Made by a program: the position numbers and the translations under genes. The notes under the pieces were generated by a model. It had not been told where the DNA came from. It saw only the letters and a program-made list of their open reading frames with translations, and searched no databases. From Candidatus Woesearchaeota archaeon (GTDB taxonomy: Archaea > Nanobdellota > Nanobdellia > Nanobdellales > CAZNIQ01), in NCBI GenBank assembly GCA_964573185.1, contig CAZNIQ010000025.1, forward strand, positions 1 through 10,098: a stretch of DNA of 10,098 nucleotides, read 5' to 3'. Position 1 is the stretch's first letter; each line of letters begins with the position of its first letter. Shown piece by piece: positions 1 to 10,098 of this stretch.

Positions 1-1338
1 TATTCGGTCGTAGATTATTCCATTTTCAACATATTTTTCTTTAAATTCTTCAAATGTTTCAAAGTATTCTGAAATTCTTGTCTCTAAAATGTTTTCATAT
101 ACAGCCCTTTCAATTAATCTTTGATTTACATTTAGCATTTCCGCAATTTCTTTAACAGATTTTCTTGGATATAACCCTATTGCAACCAACTTGGCTTCTT
201 TTCTTTCTTCTCTATTTACAATTTTTCTTCTTAAATATTCTGCTACGACTAAACCTTCTCTTTGTTTTAAAGAATAAGCATATCCTATTTCTGTCAAGAA
301 TTTATAAACATCCTTTTCAGATTTCAGGTATAATCTATACATTACTTTTCCATCATATTCTTTCACTTTGTATATTTCAGATTCTATTCCAAATTCTTTC
401 AATATTTCTTTTATTTCTTCTAAGAATTTAACTAAGTTTTCTTCTAATTCTTTTACTTTTACAAATGTTAAACTTATCTGTAAAGCTGTTTTACCTTTAA
501 CTATTGGCTTTGAACCGTCTGAACCAAATAAACCTGCTAAGAAATTTGCTTTAACCCATTTTGGGCTTTCCTTTAACCATTCTGGTATTCTGAATTCTGC
601 TTTTGTTTTCTCACCAACAGGAGCTCCCAATTTAATTAATAATAATGCAAAAGCTTTTGAGGTAATCTTAATAGAATATTCTTTTCCTTCAGTTTCATAT
701 TCATAACCCCAAGGAGATTTTATCTTTATTTTTCTTTTCCTTTCATAAATTCTTGAAGCTTTAATACTTAATTTTTCTAGATCTCTTCTTAATTCTTCCA
801 ATCCTTCCTTTTCACCGTAGAACCAAACAATATATCTTTCTCTCTTCTTCCCTCTCTCTTCTGTTATTATTCTAGTTATGCATCCATCTCCAATTAGATA
901 ACCTAAAATTCTAGCAAGGATTCCAATTCTTAAATCATTTGATTTCAAAGGTAACAATTTTCTTTCTTTAAGATACTTAATTATTTGTGGGTCATATCTT
1001 TCGAAATCTTTTTCAGTTAAAATTACTTTTTCTTTTGGTTTTTCAAACTCAACACCTTCAAATGGGTAAACAGCTATATACTCTCCTACTTTTAGTTCTT
1101 TAGCTAATTTCCATCCTTCTTTTGTTAAAACTGGATGATCAAAAGATAATTCTAGTTCCCTTCCAGTTTCTGTTTTTATCTTTATTATGAACTCGTCAGA
1201 GGGTCTTTCAGATATAAATAAAATTCTGCTTCTCTTTTCCTTTGTTCTTAACTCTACTTCATTTAATAAAGGTATTAAATCTTTTATTTTAATTCTAAAA
1301 CCTAAATCCGTTAGTACTTCGGTATTTCCAGGCAAGCA
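1..1338 (-). mobile_element. Intein with LAGLIDADG homing-endonuclease domain, inserted in RtcB directly after GFDIN; C-terminal splice junction is outside the window
   Basis: After extein ...GGIGFDIN the sequence continues [14 protein letters not shown] (Cys1 codon 1338..1336, intein block A-like). This is followed by [12 protein letters not shown] (block B-like, TxxH type). Two LAGLIDADG motifs follow: [15 protein letters not shown] (about 883..903) and [14 protein letters not shown] (about 511..543). ENGIIYDRI at the window edge resembles block F. The RtcB motif would normally continue GFDINCGVR. Confidence 0.85.
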
Positions 1339-1656: not shown

Positions 1657-1704
1657 ATGAGGAGGGGCACACTCTCTGAGAATGATGAGAGGAGCGAGAG
1701 CCGA
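1657..1704 (+). ncRNA. Candidate box C/D sRNA-like element with degenerate terminal boxes, coincident with codons 1-16 of the downstream CDS
   Basis: Layout is ATGAGGA (C, 1 mismatch to RUGAUGA), 12 nt GGGGCACACTCT, CTGA (D', 1676..1679), GAA, TGATGA (C', 1683..1688), 12 nt GAGGAGCGAGAG, CCGA (D variant, 1701..1704). The 12/3/12 spacing is canonical and the internal boxes are perfect, but both terminal boxes are imperfect. The segment is locally GC-rich relative to its surroundings. Confidence 0.4.
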
Positions 1705-2847
1705 ATACTTCTTGTTCGTAAAATAAAAGATAAGGAAGCGTACCCACCAAAAGAAGACTCCTTCTTATTACAAAAATATGTTAAAATTTTTGCTAAAGGA
1801 ATAGTTTTGGATATTGGCACTGGTACTGGAATTCAAGCAATAACAGCAGCTTTAAAATCTAACGTCAAAAGAGTAATAGCCTCTGATATTGATAAAGATG
1901 CATTGATTATTGCAAAGTTTAATTCTGAGCTAAATGGAGTTTATGAAAAGATAATTTTTGTCCAATCCAACTTATTCGAAAGAATTCCAAAAATAAAATA
2001 TGATACTATTATTTTTAATCCCCCATATTTACCTGAGGAAGGAGTAGAGGATTATAAAACAAAACTTTGGACGGTTGGAGGTGAGGAAGGAAATGAACTT
2101 ATCTTAAGGTTTTTAGAAGAAGCTTGGAAATATTTATATAAAAATGGCATTATTCTTTTAGTTTTTTCATCTTTAAGCAATCCTAAAAAGATATTATCTT
2201 TTGCAGAAGAATTAGGATATTCATATAAGCTTTTAGAATCTAAAAGATTTTTCTTTGAAGAAATCTATGTTTACTTATTCAGCAGGTCTCATGATCATCA
2301 TCTTTCAGCACAGGAAACGTTCATCACCGAAGGTTGGCATTCTCATATTTATTTAACAGATAGAAATACTATTATAAAAAAGTTTAAAGAAAATTTAAGG
2401 TTAAACTATGAAAAGGAAAAATATTTTTTATTAAAGCTAAAGGATTTCGATTTTACTCCAAAGATTATAGATTTTGATGATAGCGAAATGAAAATAGAAA
2501 TGGAATATATTAAAGGAAAAACATTGAAGGAAGTTATTAAAAAAGGAAAGTTAACTGTCGATTTAATTAAGGATATTTTGGAGATTTGTTACACGCTAGA
2601 TAAATTGAGAATAGATAAAGGGGAGATGAATAGACCATGGGAACATATAATAATTTCAGATAGAATTGTCTTTATTGATTGGGAGAGAGCTAAAGAAACT
2701 AGAAAGCCTTCTAATGTAACAAATTTTCTACAGTTCTTACATAAAATTAAATTTATTGATATAACAAAAATAAAAGATATTTTAAGGAAATATAAGAAAA
2801 CCTATGATAGAAAGTATATTTTAGAGATAATCAGAAATCTAGGATAA
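1657..2847 (+). CDS. Fusion protein: N-terminal HemK/Mtq2-type (archaeal HemK-related) SAM-dependent methyltransferase plus C-terminal divergent Bud32/RIO-like kinase-fold domain
   Basis: The methyltransferase part (aa ~27-208) has YPPKEDSFLL, VLDIGTGTGIQAI (SAM motif I) and IIFNPPYLP (NPPY, codons 121-124 at 2017..2028), and ends ...FFFEEIYVYLFS like stand-alone archaeal HemK-related proteins. The C-terminal part (aa ~225-396) has GWHSHIYL...TIIKKF, KIEMEYIKGKTLKEVI, RIDKGEMNRPWEHIII and VFIDWE. These align by eye to the Bud32 elements (G-loop, VIIK, MEYIxG, HxDLxxxN, DFG) but with substituted catalytic residues. Confidence 0.75.
   Translation: MRRGTLSENDERSESRILLVRKIKDKEAYPPKEDSFLLQKYVKIFAKGIVLDIGTGTGIQAITAALKSNVKRVIASDIDKDALIIAKFNSELNGVYEKIIFVQSNLFERIPKIKYDTIIFNPPYLPEEGVEDYKTKLWTVGGEEGNELILRFLEEAWKYLYKNGIILLVFSSLSNPKKILSFAEELGYSYKLLESKRFFFEEIYVYLFSRSHDHHLSAQETFITEGWHSHIYLTDRNTIIKKFKENLRLNYEKEKYFLLKLKDFDFTPKIIDFDDSEMKIEMEYIKGKTLKEVIKKGKLTVDLIKDILEICYTLDKLRIDKGEMNRPWEHIIISDRIVFIDWERAKETRKPSNVTNFLQFLHKIKFIDITKIKDILRKYKKTYDRKYILEIIRNLG
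2279..2327 (-). ncRNA. Box C/D sRNA, antisense to and fully inside the fusion CDS at its domain junction
   Basis: Minus-strand layout is GTGATGA (C, 2327..2321), 12 nt ACGTTTCCTGTG, CTGA (D', 2308..2305), AAGA, TGATGA (C', 2300..2295), 12 nt TCATGAGACCTG, CTGA (D, 2282..2279). All four boxes are perfect, both guides are exactly 12 nt, and the segment is a local GC island. Confidence 0.8.
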
Positions 2848-3651
2848 TTTTTCTAGTACTTCTTTTGCAATTTCTTTTATCTTTTCATCTTTTACATTTT
2901 CTAAAATATATTCCCAAACATTTTTTGAAAAATTATAATTAACCAAAATCTTAAGTAAACAATCGTAATACTTTTTATATTTTTGGTATTTTTCACTTTC
3001 TTTTTCTGGTATACTTAAAAGTTTATTTTTGATCTGCTCATATAATTTAAATCCTAGTTTTACGTCTAGTAATCCATTTGGAACAAACAAATCTATTAAT
3101 ACTTCCTCAAAATCTGGAGGTAAGTTAATTTCGTTATAGTCAAATAATATATGCAACAGTTCATGTAGAAATCCGGAAAACTTTTCTTCAACACTTCGTC
3201 TTTCGTTTTTACCAGCTGATTGGAAAATTATATATCTGTCCTTATATACAAGTGCACTTCCAAAAGATATCGTAGGAGAAAGATTATAAACTAAGTAAAC
3301 TTCTACTTCATTAGGGAATTTCTTTATCAAAAAAGTTTCCTTAATTATTTCTAAAGCTTCTTCTATTTTTTCATTATAAAAGCCTTCAAATTTATTTTTC
3401 AATTCTATCAATTCTTCCTTTATTTCCTCAAACCATTCAATTTTATAATCTACTTTTATCTTTTTATCAAGAATTCCTAATAAAAATTCCTTTCCTTTTC
3501 CCTCTAAACATTTAGAACGAAATGTATATACCAACTTTGCTAATTTAAAATCTAGGAATTGAAAAAATAAAGGATCTAGATTTATAATATGTGATCTATA
3601 TAATAATGAAGCCAATTGTGCTTCTTTAGAGACAACTACCTTTACTTTCAT
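2839..3651 (-). CDS. Hypothetical protein with HExxH motif (possible zinc metallopeptidase-like)
   Basis: Intact 270-aa ORF with coding-like K/E/I-rich composition. It contains a single HELLH motif (aa 163-167, 3151..3165) in the context FSGFLHELLHILFDYNE. I recognise no other family signature. The 3' end overlaps the convergent fusion CDS by 9 nt. Confidence 0.6.
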   Translation of the reverse strand: MKVKVVVSKEAQLASLLYRSHIINLDPLFFQFLDFKLAKLVYTFRSKCLEGKGKEFLLGILDKKIKVDYKIEWFEEIKEELIELKNKFEGFYNEKIEEALEIIKETFLIKKFPNEVEVYLVYNLSPTISFGSALVYKDRYIIFQSAGKNERRSVEEKFSGFLHELLHILFDYNEINLPPDFEEVLIDLFVPNGLLDVKLGFKLYEQIKNKLLSIPEKESEKYQKYKKYYDCLLKILVNYNFSKNVWEYILENVKDEKIKEIAKEVLEKLS

Positions 3652-3689: not shown

Positions 3690-3738
3690 TCAGGAGCTTA
3701 GAGGCTCATCAATAATCAGCTCCGCCTGAAATCATCAT
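3690..3738 (-). ncRNA. Box C/D sRNA (intergenic)
   Basis: Minus-strand layout is ATGATGA (C, 3738..3732), 12 nt TTTCAGGCGGAG, CTGA (D', 3719..3716), TTAT, TGATGA (C', 3711..3706), 12 nt GCCTCTAAGCTC, CTGA (D, 3693..3690). The flanks (AUUUUAA 5' and ACAAAAU 3') can form a short terminal stem. It is the GC-rich island of an otherwise A/T intergenic region. Confidence 0.85.
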
Positions 3739-3766: not shown

Positions 3767-4522
3767 ATGCTTGTAGACACACATTCGCATATCTTTTTTT
3801 ATAAAGAGAAAGTTGATGATGTAATAAAAGAATGTAAGGAAAAAGGAGTTAAATACATTGTTGAAAATGGTTTGAATGTAGAAACTAATAGAATTGTTTT
3901 AAATGAAGCTAAAAAATATGATATTGTTCTAGCAGCCTTAGGATTTCATCCAGTGGATATCTCAAAGGAAAAAGAAGATATTATTGAAAAAGAAATAGAA
4001 TTCATTAAAGAAAATAAGGATAAGATTGTTGCCATAGGAGAAGTTGGATTGGATTATTACTGGGTAAAAGAAAAAGATCTACAAGAGAAGCAGAAAAAAT
4101 ATTTATATAAATTTATTGAACTAGCAGAAGATATTAAAAAACCTTTGATAGTCCATTCTAGAAATTCTGAAAAAGACATTATAGATATTCTAAGCACAAC
4201 AAAAGCAAAAGTTATTTTACATAGTTATATGGGGAGGATTTCTTATGCTAAAAAAGCTATTGATTTTGGATTTTATTTTTCTGTCCCATCTGTAGTTTAC
4301 AAAAGAAAAGATTTGCACAGATTAATAGAGGAAATTCCTTTAGAGTTAATTTTAACTGAAACAGACTCTCCTTTTTTAGATCCAGTAGGTTACAGAAATA
4401 ATAAGCCATGGAAAGTAATTTACGGTTTAGAAACAATTACTAAAATAAAAAAAGTTGATTTAGAAGAATTAAAGGCAATAATAATTAGAAATTTTGAGAA
4501 AGTATTTCAAGTAAAAGTTTAG
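3767..4522 (+). CDS. tatD: TatD-family metal-dependent hydrolase/DNase
   Basis: N-terminal MLVDTHSHIFF (DxHxH metal site), GEVGLDYYW, PLIVHSR, VILHSY and LTETDSPFL match the TatD/amidohydrolase signature order. Intact 251-aa ORF. Confidence 0.88.
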   Translation: MLVDTHSHIFFYKEKVDDVIKECKEKGVKYIVENGLNVETNRIVLNEAKKYDIVLAALGFHPVDISKEKEDIIEKEIEFIKENKDKIVAIGEVGLDYYWVKEKDLQEKQKKYLYKFIELAEDIKKPLIVHSRNSEKDIIDILSTTKAKVILHSYMGRISYAKKAIDFGFYFSVPSVVYKRKDLHRLIEEIPLELILTETDSPFLDPVGYRNNKPWKVIYGLETITKIKKVDLEELKAIIIRNFEKVFQVKV

Positions 4523-5042
4523 AATTTAATACCTCTGGATGAAAAGTGAAACCATAAATCTCTCTGTTTTTTACCTTAAAAATCGCTGGTTCATCTTTAA
4601 CATATCCTAAAATTTCAAAATTTTCGCTTAAAACAGGATACCTCACTATTAAAAAATAAGCTCTAAATTTGCCAAAAATAGAATTTACATCATAAACTCC
4701 AATAAATCCTTTTTTCTTTAGTTTACCCCCAAATGTTAATGCTATTATTTGAGATCCTGCACCTACTCCTATCACTTTCTTATTCGTATTTTTAATCCAT
4801 TTGAACTTATCTAAATAGTTTAAATATTCAAAATCTTTAATAGCAGTTCCAGATAAAATAATTACATCCTCTTTCGGTTCTTTCTCCAATTCTTTATAAT
4901 GAATTACTTTAACATTTCCTTTTTCTTTAAAAATGTCTACTAAAGGTCCTACAAACTCTTCTTCATGCAACTTATATTTACATAAAGAAATTATCAGGAT
5001 CGAGAGTCCCTCATCATTTTCAGAGTGGGATAACGTCATCAT
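4485..5042 (-). CDS. Class-I glutamine amidotransferase-like protein (GuaA subunit A-like fold) lacking the nucleophile cysteine
   Basis: ILIISL (beta-1-like), VIILSG, VIGVGAGSQIIALTFGG in place of the GxCxGxQ nucleophile elbow, and YGFTFHPEV (His/Glu of the triad). The only canonical in-frame starts are ATG 5042 or 5039, both inside the C box of the overlapping sRNA. Confidence 0.65.
   Translation of the reverse strand: MMTLSHSENDEGLSILIISLCKYKLHEEEFVGPLVDIFKEKGNVKVIHYKELEKEPKEDVIILSGTAIKDFEYLNYLDKFKWIKNTNKKVIGVGAGSQIIALTFGGKLKKKGFIGVYDVNSIFGKFRAYFLIVRYPVLSENFEILGYVKDEPAIFKVKNREIYGFTFHPEVLNSKLLLEILSQNF
4994..5042 (-). ncRNA. Box C/D sRNA coincident with codons 1-17 of the GATase-like CDS
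   Basis: Minus-strand layout is ATGATGA (C, 5042..5036), 12 nt CGTTATCCCACT, CTGA (D', 5023..5020), AAA, TGATGA (C', 5016..5011), 13 nt GGGACTCTCGATC, CTGA (D, 4997..4994). All four boxes are perfect and the segment is a GC-rich island. A TATA-like ATTTTTAAA (complement of 5067..5075) sits about 29 nt upstream of the C box. Confidence 0.8.
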
Positions 5043-5080
5043 TAAGATTTTAAATTTTGTTTAGAATTTAAAAATTAGAT
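5043..5080. promoter_or_regulatory. 38-bp divergent promoter spacer between the sRNA/GATase-like unit (minus) and tRNA-Gln (plus)
   Basis: Plus-strand TTTTAAAT (5048..5055) is centred about 29 nt upstream of tRNA position 1 (5081). Minus-strand ATTTTTAAA (5075..5067) is centred about 29 nt upstream of the C box/ATG at 5042. The symmetric spacing fits archaeal TATA boxes; unverified. Confidence 0.4.
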
Positions 5081-5116
5081 AGCCCCGTCGTCTAGCGGCC
5101 AAGGATGCGGGGTACC

Positions 5117-6169
5117 ATGGCGGCCGACCCCTTCCAACTTCTTTATTCCACAGTTAAACATTTGGAAAAGGAAATGAATGTTTCTTTAGATGAAGTAGCT
5201 GTCACCTATCCTCATTCAGAGATTTCGCGAGAATTTGTTAGAAGACTGCGTAGAAGATTCAAAATCAGAATAAAAGGAGAAGGAACTTTCCATACAACTG
5301 GAAGATTATTAGGATTGGCATTAACAGATGCAAATTTAAGATCTGCATTAAGTGGCTACTTTATAGTTGGAACGACCAGAATGGAAACATTTGAAATTTA
5401 TAAGAAACTTTTTAAAGACATAGTTCTTTTTACAGATTATCCTAGATATATAAATGGCAATCCATTATTACCTCTTTACATGTTGTCTAAAGACAAAACC
5501 TCTGTTAAAAAAGAAAGTATAAATAAGCTTAAAATGCTGCTAACGGACAATTTAGATATTTTTGAGGAAAAAGGGATCTTTGATTTTATAGCAAGCTGTG
5601 TAGATTTTGACGGAGAAGTACATGGCAGAACATTTGTTATTTATAGAAAAGAAAATAGCAGGAAGGGGCAAATATTATCTAAACTTTTCTTATTTTTTGA
5701 AGAAATTGGCATATTAAAAATCACAAATTATGGTTTAAATACATGGAAAGATAGAATATCATTCAAAGTTTCTGCAAAGTATATACGAAATATAATGTTA
5801 TTGCATCCTAATAAAAGGATTGCTTCAGATATTTCAATTCCAAGTATAGTTTTTACAAAAGAAGAACTAGAATGCCTTAGGAAATACCTAAAAGAGGTTA
5901 AATTAATTAAACAAAAGTATGCATACAAATATCTTCTATTATTTAATGATATAAAGGCGGCACAACTGTTAAAAGATAAAGGATTTAAAATAAGTATCTT
6001 TGGTAAAAATATTGCAAAATATTTTGGAGATAAAGCATTACTTCTAGCAATTTTAGATATTATCGGATTTAATATAAAGAACCTGATTCCTCCGTATAAA
6101 TATCCGAGTAGAATATACGAACTTTTGGATAAAGTTGAATATATAAAAAGCCATATAAAGGTTAAATGA
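5117..6169 (+). CDS. Intron-encoded two-motif LAGLIDADG homing endonuclease with a C-terminal extension of about 140 aa
   Basis: Motif 1 is RLLGLALTDANL (LLGLALTDA at 5306..5332). Motif 2 is FDFIASCVDFDGEV (IASCVDFDG at 5588..5614). They lie about 95 aa apart, as in single-chain LAGLIDADG enzymes. The start is set at ATG 5117, the first ATG inside the intron. The track start 5105 lies in the tRNA exon, and ATG 5174 is an alternative. Stop TGA is at 6167..6169, 10 nt before the clamp. Confidence 0.8.
   Translation: MAADPFQLLYSTVKHLEKEMNVSLDEVAVTYPHSEISREFVRRLRRRFKIRIKGEGTFHTTGRLLGLALTDANLRSALSGYFIVGTTRMETFEIYKKLFKDIVLFTDYPRYINGNPLLPLYMLSKDKTSVKKESINKLKMLLTDNLDIFEEKGIFDFIASCVDFDGEVHGRTFVIYRKENSRKGQILSKLFLFFEEIGILKITNYGLNTWKDRISFKVSAKYIRNIMLLHPNKRIASDISIPSIVFTKEELECLRKYLKEVKLIKQKYAYKYLLLFNDIKAAQLLKDKGFKISIFGKNIAKYFGDKALLLAILDIIGFNIKNLIPPYKYPSRIYELLDKVEYIKSHIKVK
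5119..5133 (+). repeat. 5' arm of a 15-bp perfect inverted repeat (GC clamp) closing the intron
   Basis: GGCGGCCGACCCCTT is the exact reverse complement of 6179..6193. Confidence 0.95.
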
Positions 6170-6178
6170 AAAAATGTA

Positions 6179-6193
6179 AAGGGGTCGGCCGCC
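6179..6193 (+). repeat. 3' arm of a 15-bp perfect inverted repeat (GC clamp) closing the intron
   Basis: AAGGGGTCGGCCGCC is the exact reverse complement of 5119..5133. Confidence 0.95.
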
Positions 6194-6239
6194 GGGCCCG
6201 AGTTTGGTCCCCGTGACCGGGGTTCGAATCCCCGCGGGG

Positions 6240-8495
6240 CTAGTAAACTTTAACTTCTATTTCAGTTCCCTTTCTATATAAATAATAGCTTTTTGCAGCA
6301 GCTTCTTTAAAAATTTCATCATGTGTACAAATAATTAATTGGAAATTCTCCAAAGATTTTAAAGTTTCTGCAAGTTTCCTTCTTATTCTTTCATCTAAAG
6401 ATTCTGTAGGCTCATCTAATAATAGAAAGCCTATATTTTTTGATAACAGATTTATTAATGCAAATCTAAAAGCCAAGTCTAAAGCTACTATTTGGCCTCC
6501 AGATAGGGACGCTTCTTCCAAAGGTAAAACAACATCCCTCTCACCAATTTTCTTCTTTACATATATTTTATAAACAAAATCTTTCCTTCCCCTTTCAACT
6601 CTTATCTCAACACTTTCAATATCATCATATATGTAAATCCTCTTAAACCAATAATTTAGATAAATAGTTAATCTTTTGGCAACTTCATCTCTTACCCTTA
6701 TCTTTATTTTTTGGAATACAGTAGCAAGCTTGCTTATTATATTTACAAATTTTTCTAACTCTTCGATGTACTTCTTAAGTTTTTCAACATATTCTTTCTT
6801 CTCTTTTAAGTATTTCAAGAATTTTATATCTATTTTAGGTAAGCTTTCCAGTTCATCTTCAACTTCCTTTATTTTCCTTTCTATTTCTTCTAATTCTATA
6901 CCATACCTCTTAACGATTTCTTTTAATTCCTCTAACTCTTTTATTTTTTCTTTCATCTTAAAGATCCTATATCTTTGAATTTCCAAATCTCTTAACTCTT
7001 TTTCTAATCTACTTTTAGTTTCTTCCAATTCTTTTACACTTCTCTCAATCTCTTTCTTCTTCAAATAACTTAAAGCAGAATATACTTTTTCATAGATCAA
7101 AATTTCGTTTAATTCTTTCTCAAAGTTTTCCTTTATTCTTTCTAATTCTTCTATTTTATCAGTACCAAATTCCTCTAAGGCAAAGTTTAAATAATATTTT
7201 CTTTTATTATAAATCTCTCTCTTCTCTTCTAACTCTTTTTCTAAATTTAAGATTTCTCTTTTTATTTGTAAATCTCTTTTTTTCAACTCTTCTAACTCTT
7301 TTACCTTTTCTTCTAATAATTTTTTTGGATTTTCAATTCTTGAACCACACACAGGACATTTCGGTTCCTTTACTTTTTCTAGTATCTCTATGAGTTTTTG
7401 AATATCCTTTATCTTAACATTTAATTCCCTCAACTCTTCTTTTTTCTTTTCTAATTTTTCTTCTAATTCTTTTATATCCTCTTCTTTTATATTCGGTAGC
7501 TCTTTCAAATTCTTTATAATTCTCTCTATTTGTTTTATTTTATTTAAAATTAAGGACTTTCTTGAGGTATCTACCTTTATTTTCTTTACCGTTTCCTCCA
7601 GCTCTTCTATTTTCTTATCTAAGAACTCTTTAAAATCATCCGTTAAAATATCATACTTTGCACTTTCTTCTTTCAATTCTAATATTATATTTTCAACTTC
7701 TCTTAACTCTTCTTTAATTTTACTATATTTTTCATTAATTTCTTTTTCTTTTTTCAACAACTCCTCATCGATTTCCCTCTTCAAATATTTATATCTTATA
7801 TTTATCCTTTCTAACTCTTTTAATTGTCTCTCCAATTCTTCCCTTCTTTTAGCTAATTCTTCTAGTTTTCCAATATCCTCTCCAAAGTACTTTTGTATAG
7901 AAGCGCTTTCTCTTGTATATTCGGATTTTGCTCTTAGTAATTCTTTTCTTAAATCCTCTAGAGCTTTGCTTAAGGTATCTGCAATCTCTGTAAATTTTTT
8001 CAAATCTAATAATTCTTCTAATTCTTCTGAAAAAGTTTTCTTTCCAGAGCCTAAAACCAAAGATCCTAAAGTTCTTTGTCTAATGAATATAACATTTACA
8101 GCCTTATCTAAATCTTTTACTTTGAGTAAATTTTCTAATACATATCTAGTTATAGTTTCATTTCCAGATGCAACCACTTTTCCATTTTTTCTTATAATAC
8201 CATTTCCAGAAGGAACTTCTCTTATAATTTCATATATATTTTCATTATCCTGTAAAACAACTGTAACTTTTCCTAGAGAACTTCCTCTTCTGACTAAATT
8301 TTCTTTTCTTCCACCTTTTTCGTAAGAAGTTAAAGCTTGAGAGCCAAATAAAGCATAAATTATACCTAATAATATAGATGTTTTACCGGTTCCGTTTTCG
8401 CCTAAAATCAAAGTAACTTTATCATCAAAATCTATTGCTAAGTTTTTATGAATTCTAAAATTTTCTAATACTACTTTTTTTAATTTAACTACCAT
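6240..8495 (-). CDS. rad50: DNA double-strand break repair ATPase Rad50
   Basis: Walker A GENGTGKTS is near the N-terminus. A long E/K-rich coiled coil carries a central zinc hook, KEPKCPVCGS (CPVC at 7358..7347, aa 380-383). The ABC signature SLSGGQ, Walker B LLLDEPT and H-loop ICTHD are at the C-terminus. The start overlaps the mre11 stop by 7 nt. Confidence 0.93.
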   Translation of the reverse strand: MVVKLKKVVLENFRIHKNLAIDFDDKVTLILGENGTGKTSILLGIIYALFGSQALTSYEKGGRKENLVRRGSSLGKVTVVLQDNENIYEIIREVPSGNGIIRKNGKVVASGNETITRYVLENLLKVKDLDKAVNVIFIRQRTLGSLVLGSGKKTFSEELEELLDLKKFTEIADTLSKALEDLRKELLRAKSEYTRESASIQKYFGEDIGKLEELAKRREELERQLKELERINIRYKYLKREIDEELLKKEKEINEKYSKIKEELREVENIILELKEESAKYDILTDDFKEFLDKKIEELEETVKKIKVDTSRKSLILNKIKQIERIIKNLKELPNIKEEDIKELEEKLEKKKEELRELNVKIKDIQKLIEILEKVKEPKCPVCGSRIENPKKLLEEKVKELEELKKRDLQIKREILNLEKELEEKREIYNKRKYYLNFALEEFGTDKIEELERIKENFEKELNEILIYEKVYSALSYLKKKEIERSVKELEETKSRLEKELRDLEIQRYRIFKMKEKIKELEELKEIVKRYGIELEEIERKIKEVEDELESLPKIDIKFLKYLKEKKEYVEKLKKYIEELEKFVNIISKLATVFQKIKIRVRDEVAKRLTIYLNYWFKRIYIYDDIESVEIRVERGRKDFVYKIYVKKKIGERDVVLPLEEASLSGGQIVALDLAFRFALINLLSKNIGFLLLDEPTESLDERIRRKLAETLKSLENFQLIICTHDEIFKEAAAKSYYLYRKGTEIEVKVY

Positions 8496-9682: not shown

Positions 9683-10098
9683 GGATCTTCTAAGAATTCC
9701 CTTATTACTTTTAAAATGTTTTCTCTTGTTCTTGGAAAAGCTCTGAAAGTTATCTTAACATGAAAAACTTCCCCATGATCTACAAACATAAGCTTCCCAG
9801 TATTAACAAAATAATCTTTGTCAAATCTTAAATATAACCTTCCATTTTCATCAACAATTTTCTCTAGATCCCTTAAAATATCTTCTTTATTTTCTATTCT
9901 TTTTTTGATATTTTCTAACACTTTTTTAATTACTCTCCACTTATTTATTTTAACAGTGTAAGTTATTAGTTCAGATGACACTAAACCTTTTCCTTTAACC
10001 TCTTCAATATTTATTTTTTCTTTTTTCAGATCTATGCCCTCAAAAAATTTTAATAAAGCCTCCTTTATCTTTTCGGGATCATCCCAATCGTATACTAT
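9679..10098 (-). CDS. Hypothetical protein, probably 5'-truncated by the right window edge; translationally coupled to mre11
   Basis: The track ORF starts at GTG 9981, but my translation shows the same frame is open to base 10098 (IVYDWDDPEKIKEALLKFFEGIDLKKEKINIEEVKGKGL-VSSELITY...) with coding-like composition. Its stop overlaps the mre11 start in an ATGA (9679..9682). I see no recognisable family motif and no HerA or NurA signatures. Confidence 0.55.
   Translation of the reverse strand: MVYDWDDPEKIKEALLKFFEGIDLKKEKINIEEVKGKGLVSSELITYTVKINKWRVIKKVLENIKKRIENKEDILRDLEKIVDENGRLYLRFDKDYFVNTGKLMFVDHGEVFHVKITFRAFPRTRENILKVIREFLEDP

Follow-up and report, generated by a model that had tools for sequence, protein, structure and literature searches.

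A predicted box C/D sRNA gene lies on the 5′ end of an archaeal GATase-like gene and contains its sole canonical start

In a 10,098-nucleotide stretch of DNA from a Candidatus Woesearchaeota archaeon (contig CAZNIQ010000025.1; this whole stretch is hereafter “the window”), a box C/D small RNA (sRNA) gene predicted at positions 4994–5042 of the minus strand lies on the 5′ end of a gene for a GATase-like protein, and the C box of the sRNA holds the only canonical start of that gene. Does such an element act as a guide RNA, as the beginning of an mRNA, or as both? On balance, we consider it probable that a C/D sRNA with its own box-A promoter came to lie on the 5′ end of the GATase gene, and that a small RNA and a leaderless mRNA arise from one transcript and compete with one another. 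The window corresponds, in reverse complement, to part of a metagenome contig of 16,986 bp (ENA ERZ27262635). It is ~27% GC with short GC-rich islands and encodes Mre11, Rad50, TatD, a HemK2–kinase fusion, and the GATase-like protein. The features of the locus are as follows.

4994–5042, minus strand: box C/D sRNA core, 49 nt, AUGAUGA-12-CUGA-AAA-UGAUGA-13-CUGA
5042–5036, minus strand: C box AUGAUGA, the 5′ part of the sRNA
5035–5024, minus strand: D′ guide, 12 nt, CGUUAUCCCACU (DNA CGTTATCCCACT)
5023–5020, minus strand: D′ box CUGA
5019–5017, minus strand: D′–C′ spacer AAA, 3 nt
5016–5011, minus strand: C′ box UGAUGA
5010–4998, minus strand: D guide, 13 nt, GGGACUCUCGAUC (DNA GGGACTCTCGATC)
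4997–4994, minus strand: D box CUGA
4485–5042, minus strand: GATase class I-like open reading frame (ORF) of 185 amino acids (Pfam PF00117, E = 2e-8); its codons 1–17 are the sRNA
5067–5072: palindromic TTTAAA (box A, TATA-like), 25–30 nt upstream of A5042 and presumed to act as promoter for both sRNA and mRNA
5049–5054: second palindromic TTTAAA, 26–31 nt upstream of the tRNA-Gln 5′ exon (5080, plus strand); from its spacing, a presumed divergent promoter
4984–4990, minus strand: TTTCTTT run, 3 nt past the D box and within I-S-L codons; possibly a leaky terminator

The first-pass annotation had described a textbook C/D sRNA on the minus strand from 5042 to 4994, and all of the boxes and spacings that it named are present. 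It had also held that the D′ and C′ boxes translate to the peptide S-E-N-D-E and that the D box falls within the codons for I-L-I-I; both statements are exact. The element has C and D boxes, D′ and C′ boxes, a short spacer between the latter two, guides of ~12 nt, and the length of an archaeal C/D sRNA; its 3-nt D′–C′ spacer is that of the other sRNAs of this lineage and of Nanoarchaeum equitans. The window was scanned with a strict pattern (UGAUGA, a guide of 10–14 nt, CUGA, 2–9 nt, UGAUGA, a second guide of 10–14 nt, and CUGA). Three perfect motifs emerged, all on the minus strand (5041–4994, 3737–3690, and 2326–2279), as opposed to none in 2000 dinucleotide-preserving shuffles. A fourth site, at 1658–1704 of the plus strand, is imperfect, with two box changes. 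We conclude that 4994–5042 is, as predicted from its sequence, a bona fide archaeal C/D sRNA gene.

The same bases are the only canonical entry into the GATase-like ORF, as had been proposed. The ORF opens with ATG-ATG at 5042 and 5039, inside the C box; an in-frame stop (TAA, 5063–5061) lies 21 nt upstream, and the next in-frame ATG, GTG, or TTG is a TTG at codon 25, past the conserved ILIISLCK strand. No usable start thus precedes the conserved structure other than those in the C box, and, judged by protein conservation, the true start is inside the sRNA: only the ATGs at 5042 and 5039 come before the conserved core. The entire sRNA is contained in codons 1–17 of the ORF on the same strand, which places it in the class of sense 5′ overlaps. 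Most of the eight GATase homologues begin 1–3 residues ahead of the ILIISLCK strand (MYITIISL, MISIISTC, MILIISLC), and the window protein has 13 additional N-terminal residues compared with them, MMTLSHSENDEGL. In two relatives without the sRNA (L004 and L005), an ATG stands immediately ahead of the conserved strand; the window counterpart reads GGA-CTC-TCG-ATC and offers no canonical start.

The composition of this segment is extreme. Codons 1–17 are 43% GC vs. 26% for the remainder of the ORF, and the two guide regions reach 50–62% GC in a genome of 27% GC. A score for rare synonymous codons was −26.7 over codons 1–17, compared with −13.6 ± 2.7 elsewhere (z ~ −4.8); none of 4333 internal windows scored as low, making this the most codon-atypical segment of the contig. 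The rare codons include CTC (1% of Leu), TCG (3% of Ser), CTG (3%), TCC (5%), and ATC (7%). Codon usage and GC content this far from the norm therefore point to a constraint at the RNA level that shapes the segment, even though it is the sole entry into the ORF.

A TATA-like box had been noted upstream of the C box at a spacing suited to a transcript that starts at the sRNA, and TTTAAA is indeed found there (5072–5067, 25–30 nt). According to the N. equitans study (PMC3491384), box A in that organism is TTTAAA located 26–27 nt upstream of mapped transcription starts, and sRNAs that have their own promoters begin with a purine. From this spacing and the N. equitans starts, the predicted transcript would begin at the C box or 1 nt before it, giving a leaderless mRNA that has its 5′ end in common with the sRNA. 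Similar A/T-rich boxes begin 29–32 nt upstream of the C-box purine at three other sRNAs of the window (those starting at 3738, 2327, and 1657) and at the orthologue of the last in a related genome (locus L071). T runs trail the free-standing sRNAs of this lineage as well as those of N. equitans. Only 37 nt (5043–5079) separate the sRNA/GATase start from a divergent tRNA-Gln gene with its 5′ exon; this spacer holds two TTTAAA boxes, each 25–31 nt upstream of one of the divergent starts, and has the makings of a minimal bidirectional promoter region.

How might such a locus operate? Transcription would begin at the C box or 1 nt ahead of it. L7Ae, Nop5, and fibrillarin would bind the transcript, and trimming or termination just past the D box would yield a guide RNA of ~50 nt; leaky termination at the TTTCTTT run would favor this short RNA. 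A transcript that reads through would be a leaderless mRNA whose first codon is the C-box AUG and whose first 17 codons are the sRNA, with the protein extended accordingly at its N-terminus. The two fates would compete, because they befall the same molecule. The ancestral GATase start codon, kept in the two sRNA-free relatives, has been lost in the window. A gene for Nop5 (PF01798) was found in a related metagenome-assembled genome (MAG). The C/D and C′/D′ boxes give the 5′ end of the GATase gene the potential for regulation by L7Ae through kink-turns (k-turns). We infer, purely by analogy, that occlusion by L7Ae, Nop5, and fibrillarin might oppose translation and that excision of the sRNA might decapitate the mRNA, as in a switch.

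Is the arrangement confined to one gene? The imperfect site on the plus strand occupies a similar position in the HemK2/MTQ2–kinase fusion gene:

1657–1704, plus strand: C/D sRNA-like element, AUGAGGA-GGGGCACACUCU-CUGA-GAA-UGAUGA-GAGGAGCGAGAG-CCGA, with 12-nt guides

The C-box AUG at 1657 is the sole start of the fusion ORF (1657–2847); the next in-frame start, a TTG, is at codon 51, inside the S-adenosylmethionine (SAM) motif. The protein begins MRRGTLSENDERSESR, of which MRRGTLSENDERS is the translated sRNA, and its codons 1–17 have a rare-codon score of −27.8, as atypical as the GATase segment. HemK2 homologues start 1–4 residues ahead of a conserved Y-x-P-x-EDS motif; the window protein and its L071 orthologue (P0011, 87% identical) are extended by ~24 residues. 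At the same gene position, L071 has AUGAAGA-GAAGGGTCTTAG-CUGA-AAA-UGAUGA-GAAGAGCGGGTT-CAGA (10001–10048, plus strand), again with 12-nt guides and with the C-box ATG as the only start; the translated counterpart is MKRRVLAENDEKS. The guides of this sRNA have diverged between the window (1658) and L071 (10002), and the boxes have been retained. A distant HemK2/MTQ2 homologue from a ‘Candidatus Nanoarchaeia archaeon’ (P0058) has an N-terminal extension, MSILKSEMDKRQEF, that could be a translated D′/C′ remnant. If so, the association of the methyltransferase with a 5′ sRNA would be older.

The D boxes of this pair are instructive with respect to the reading frame. With two 12-nt guides and a 3-nt spacer, a D box of the consensus CUGA would place a UGA in frame; no in-frame UGA occurs in either methyltransferase gene, because the D boxes are CCGA in the window and CAGA in L071. 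The frame of the GATase sRNA stays open by other means, its D guide being 13 nt long. We therefore asked how often the frame that starts at a C-box AUG or GUG is open through the D box. It was open in 2 of 25 sRNAs from N. equitans, in none of the 13 readable free-standing sRNAs of this lineage, and in all three that head ORFs. Because the open frame is limited in this lineage to ORF-heading sRNAs and is preserved in two species at the methyltransferase, translation from the C-box AUG is likely, as judged from these comparisons.

The closest relative of the GATase gene, at 76% amino-acid identity, is carried by two identical loci (L002 and L003). A C/D sRNA is present on the 5′ end of the gene in L002 also; when it is aligned with the window sRNA, the C, D′, and C′ boxes of the two coincide. 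The C-box frame in L002 is closed, and the one start available to the gene is the AUG with which a variant C′ box (AUGAGGA) begins. The D guide region has been rebuilt between the two: the D-box position of L002 is CTCT in the window, where a new CTGA lies 9 nt downstream. The sRNA is absent from L004, L005, and the more distant GATase homologues. As L002 has it and these others do not, we conclude that it was gained in the ancestor that the window lineage shares with L002, where it replaced the original start. Upstream of its sense sRNA, L002 shows no AT-rich TATA box. That 2.5-kb contig harbors five C/D sRNAs around the GATase orthologue (1092–1835): two in tandem upstream on the opposite strand, one on the 5′ end of the gene, and two at its 3′ end. 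The tandem pair are 1 nt apart from each other and 4 nt from the sense sRNA. Five C/D sRNAs were likewise counted in L071, and six in 16.6 kb of L001, the contig to which the window belongs.

Several observations weigh against the reading that this locus yields both a guide RNA and a competing mRNA. The Rfam model snoPyro_CD matches 4991–5045 of the minus strand weakly (21.3 bits, E = 0.91) and below its gathering score of 45. The open frame of the GATase sRNA is in part an ascertainment effect, as the element was first noticed for its openness; this does not apply to the methyltransferase pair. The D′ guides of the window and L002 match at 6 of 12 positions, and the guides are therefore not conserved. 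Indeed, the guide function of the 5′-overlapping sRNAs is doubtful, because their guides diverge while the free-standing sRNAs keep theirs. A search for guide targets in the tRNAs and other RNAs of related loci returned only self-antisense matches and weak, G-U-rich runs. Finally, the catalytic Cys of the GATase is replaced by Gly94 (GGT, 4763–4761, minus strand; GVGAGSQ vs. G-I-C-A-G-x-Q), so that the protein output of the locus may matter little; the loss points either to a non-catalytic role or to a lesser importance of that output.

We assign little weight to the first of these points. The other two perfect sites of the window also fall below the snoPyro_CD threshold (29.9 and 22.5 bits). 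The low scores can be attributed to the derivation of that model from Pyrococcus, and a limited reach of the model is indicated by the two sub-threshold sRNAs whose guides are identical or nearly so in a related genome. The Rfam threshold test has little power for this lineage.

The loss of the Cys deserves closer scrutiny. It raises the alternative that the sRNA is real and the GATase ORF a relic, which, having lost its own start and its Cys, is expressed little or not at all and is degenerating into a pseudogene, with its open frame being incidental. The nucleophilic Cys is invariant in all eight homologues, and Gly is found solely in the window sequence. According to a review (PMC7994747), moreover, a 5′ overlap strongly lowers downstream expression and may produce pseudogenes downstream of sRNA genes; a diminished importance of the GATase output would fit, by analogy, the published idea that 5′-overlapped genes may decay. 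Yet the ORF is intact, with both His and Glu retained in the triad region. Comparison with L002 gives a dN/dS of ~0.16, and the gene has accumulated six lineage-specific substitutions, the same number as in each of two relatives (6 and 6). These sequence comparisons indicate purifying selection on the gene. The unusual 13-nt D guide that keeps the frame open also speaks against an incidental frame, as does the preservation of the frame at the methyltransferase in two species. We regard the relic as an unlikely explanation, albeit one with a real claim to attention.

The guides must be viewed against the two other perfect sRNAs of the window:

3690–3738, minus strand: free-standing C/D sRNA, intergenic, 38 nt upstream of the ORF at 2839–3651
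2279–2327, minus strand: C/D sRNA that runs antisense, within the methyltransferase ORF, to the stretch linking its methylase and kinase-like domains (peptide SRSHDHHLSAQETFITEG); the best Rfam score, 29.9 bits

Both guides of the latter are identical (12/12 and 12/12) in L071 (10623–10670, minus strand), and the linker peptide is conserved in P0011. The guides of the former are 11/12 and 11/12 identical to those of an L071 sRNA (11175–11222, minus strand) that lies in a different gene context; this comparison shows relocation between gene contexts. The L071 sRNA overlaps the 3′ end of the methyltransferase gene in antisense and adds to it the C-terminal tail EDHHSSASPEIIIK.

What, then, might the guides of the GATase sRNA recognize? 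Its D′ guide has a core, UUAUCCC, that stands in the same register in the D′ guide of N. equitans sRNA3 (a 7-nt run, shuffle p ~0.03), for which 23S G541 is predicted as the target (PMC3491384). In-register matches of a similar kind to N. equitans guides occur in other sRNAs of this lineage. The 23S rRNA site served by sRNA3 may still be methylated under the direction of the D′ guide. The D guide lies over the conserved protein core, had no related guide in N. equitans (p = 0.83), and is probably an orphan. When the 16S and 23S rRNAs of a member of the Bathyarchaeota (L048) were used as proxy targets, neither these guides nor the control guides gave a significant match, the proxy being too distant. 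A 16S-site pattern, GAGTAACAC-N(10–40)-GTGGGATAAC, framed on the hypothesis of a site near position 135, hit 63 loci among genome contigs; almost all were bacterial 16S genes, and none was nanoarchaeal. One candidate for an archaeal 16S gene, the ‘uncultured archaeon’ L025, was discarded, as it is actually a bacterial 16S gene. A tighter 16S pattern had one random, non-rRNA match in metagenome contigs, and a 23S signature of the N. equitans type had no match in viral contigs.

The divergence of the 5′-overlapping guides agrees with the orphan guides described by Lui et al.; of the Pyrobaculum guides located over ORF 5′ ends, 88% lack a target (PMC6009581). What persists in such elements may be an L7Ae/k-turn cassette and not a methylation guide. 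Taken to its conclusion, this idea holds that the boxes are kept for regulation or stabilization of the message by L7Ae, with or without Nop5 and fibrillarin, and that the guides are drifting, targetless spacer or coding sequence. It draws support from the conserved boxes and divergent guides of both ORF-heading sRNAs (window vs. L002; 1658 vs. L071 10002), when the free-standing sRNAs keep 11–12 of 12 guide positions, and from the repression by Sulfolobus L7Ae of mRNAs with k-turns near their start codons (PMC5539422). However, the GC-rich (50–62%), rare-codon guides argue for selection at the RNA level beyond the boxes, and the D′ guide matches an N. equitans guide in register. Our assessment is that a cassette of this kind, in place of a methylation guide, is improbable.

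A further alternative dispenses with the C-box start: translation would begin at a downstream non-canonical codon (ATC15, CTG16, ATA17, or ATT18) on a transcript freed of the sRNA, and the mature products would share no sequence. Homologues do begin at exactly that point (MISIIS, MILIIS), and near-cognate codons are present; but there is no canonical start, and no Shine-Dalgarno-like sequence is visible upstream of codons 15–18. Leaderless initiation relies strongly on AUG, which we count against such a start. The open C-box frame, here and at the methyltransferase in two species, would also be needless. We deem this explanation highly improbable. That the boxes are a chance pattern in ordinary coding sequence from which no small RNA is made can be dismissed with near certainty: the sub-threshold Rfam score is in its favor, but against it stand the excess of motifs over the shuffles, the most codon-atypical segment of the contig, an N-terminal extension missing in homologues, and a lineage rich in sRNAs of the same geometry with conserved guides.

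The GATase sRNA has a close neighbor in the tRNA-Gln gene, which is divergent from the sRNA promoter region:

5080–6243, plus strand: tRNA-Gln(UUG), exons 5080–5113 and 6203–6243, interrupted by 1089 nt (~5114–6202); found by ARAGORN with introns allowed
5174–6169, plus strand: ORF of 331 amino acids within the tRNA-Gln insert, from a gene call, with two LAGLIDADG-like motifs (LLGLALTDANL and FIASCVDFDGEV)

The gene was not detected when introns were disallowed. A T-arm-like Rfam match covers 6207–6241. We had considered whether the GC-rich block at 5075–5130 was part of the sRNA transcript, as in the tRNA–sRNA dicistrons of N. equitans; it is instead the tRNA 5′ exon and its trailer, on the opposite strand. 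The insert is flanked by perfectly complementary, GC-rich 13-mers, GGCGGCCGACCCC (5118–5130) and GGGGTCGGCCGCC (6183–6195), as in the split-tRNA halves of Nanoarchaeum. Cofolding of the halves (−79.8 kcal/mol) produced an acceptor stem, a T arm, and a long helix. The insert is either a kilobase-size intron of the bulge–helix–bulge (BHB) type or the gap of a cis-adjacent split tRNA. Published archaeal tRNA introns measure 11–129 nt, and adjacent split halves are known in Aeropyrum (PMC3218864).

The 331-residue ORF proved difficult to place. Its LAGLIDADG-like motifs align by eye with those of an intron ORF in L004, where a tRNA-Gln gene (84–619, minus strand) is interrupted at the canonical 37/38 position by a 461-nt intron containing a frameshifted ORF with a Pfam LAGLIDADG_3 match on the opposite strand. 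Searches against Pfam and the PDB sequences gave no match, a BLASTP comparison with the RtcB intein endonuclease was not significant, and a single-sequence AlphaFold model was unusable (pLDDT 39). The sole homologue among 1.84 billion representatives, P0131, likewise lies within a tRNA whose exon sequences are the same, in a different archaeal MAG (L072, 2904–4701), with a 1710-nt insert and a 21-nt flanking helix. A full-text literature search turned up no report of an endonuclease-bearing, BHB-type archaeal tRNA intron. Outside the window, at L001 9475–12354, the gene for the RNA ligase RtcB, the enzyme that would join spliced tRNA halves, is split by an intein that contains a LAGLIDADG_3 endonuclease domain.

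How does the GATase locus compare with known systems? Overlap of a sense sRNA with the 5′ end of an ORF has precedents. As summarized in a review (PMC7994747), Tripp et al. (2017, Mol Microbiol) reported it for 7% of 300 sRNAs from six archaea; the start codons fell in various parts of the sRNA, and expression of a downstream reporter was reduced. In Pyrobaculum, 17 guides overlap ORF 5′ ends, and the start codons are in the C′ box or the D guide (Lui 2018, PMC6009581). The proposal that L7Ae or small ribonucleoprotein (sRNP) assembly blocks initiation, and that excision of the sRNA destroys the mRNA, was made in that report and, as the review relates, by Tripp et al. in 2017. The window locus shares with this class, so far as these accounts describe it, a coding-strand sRNA, an internal start codon, and a suspected common promoter or co-transcription; its overlapping guide may, like most in the class, be an orphan. 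It differs from the Pyrobaculum cases (PMC6009581) in that the C-box AUG itself would be the start, the whole sRNA would be translated, and the mRNA is predicted to be leaderless from the sRNA 5′ end; it differs also in its recurrence at two genes within 10 kb and in its conservation across species with frame-preserving D-box variants.

In their form, the sRNAs of this lineage resemble the 26 sequenced C/D sRNAs of N. equitans (PMC3491384 and its supplement): both are 50–58 nt long with 12-nt guides, a 3–4-nt D′–C′ spacer, and no terminal stem, both have a TTTAAA box A ~26 nt upstream, and the variants UGAAGA, CAGA, and CCGA occur in both. Randau (2012) describes mRNA overlap for the majority of the N. 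equitans sRNAs, in several cases with methyltransferase genes, and places some next to tRNA or split genes. The sections of that study cited here contain no report of a C-box start codon; furthermore, the host here is a different organism, of ~27% GC. Its low GC content, sRNAs of the N. equitans type, helices in the style of split tRNAs, and distant homologues labeled Nanoarchaeia or Woesearchaeota suggest a small, AT-rich genome of probable nanoarchaeal or DPANN origin. L7Ae-mediated repression through k-turns (Daume et al. 2017, PMC5539422) offers a parallel in that a k-turn motif at or near the start codon could permit control by L7Ae; in contrast, the k-turns in that study lie in 5′ UTRs or just downstream of starts and are not complete C/D guide RNAs.

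The possible novelty that the first-pass annotation saw in this arrangement was overstated. Sense 5′ overlap, a start inside the sRNA, shared transcription, and the idea of an L7Ae block with excision had all been published, in PMC6009581 and in work covered by PMC7994747. The locus is a clean new example of a principle already described in archaea. What may be particular to it, as an extreme variant, is that the only start is a C-box AUG, with a fully translated sRNA, a leaderless message, and occurrence at two genes with conserved frame-preserving variants.

These features suggest a wider conjecture that we hold tentatively: the lineage may have co-opted C/D modules as 5′ cassettes of leaderless mRNAs. 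Such a cassette would provide a promoter-proximal start, a C-box AUG, and an on/off choice by L7Ae or the sRNP. Selection would act on the boxes and the open frame (by way of the 13-nt guide or CCGA/CAGA), not on the guides, and an N-terminal x-ENDE-x would be the footprint of the D′/C′ boxes. At least two genes per 10 kb would be of this kind, conserved across species.

The locus is a clean natural test of a question that has been raised but not settled, that of a guide RNA and an mRNA sharing one 5′ end. Because there is no alternative start codon, each molecule of the protein must derive from a transcript that escaped sRNP maturation. The replicates within the lineage, namely the second gene of the window, its orthologue, and the relative that uses its C′ box, show that selection has favored a reading frame left open across the sRNA. 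Gene callers would annotate such N-terminal extensions as protein and overlook the RNA gene. N-terminal ‘SENDE/AENDE’ peptides offer an inexpensive way to spot hidden C/D sRNAs in MAGs of DPANN archaea and nanoarchaea.

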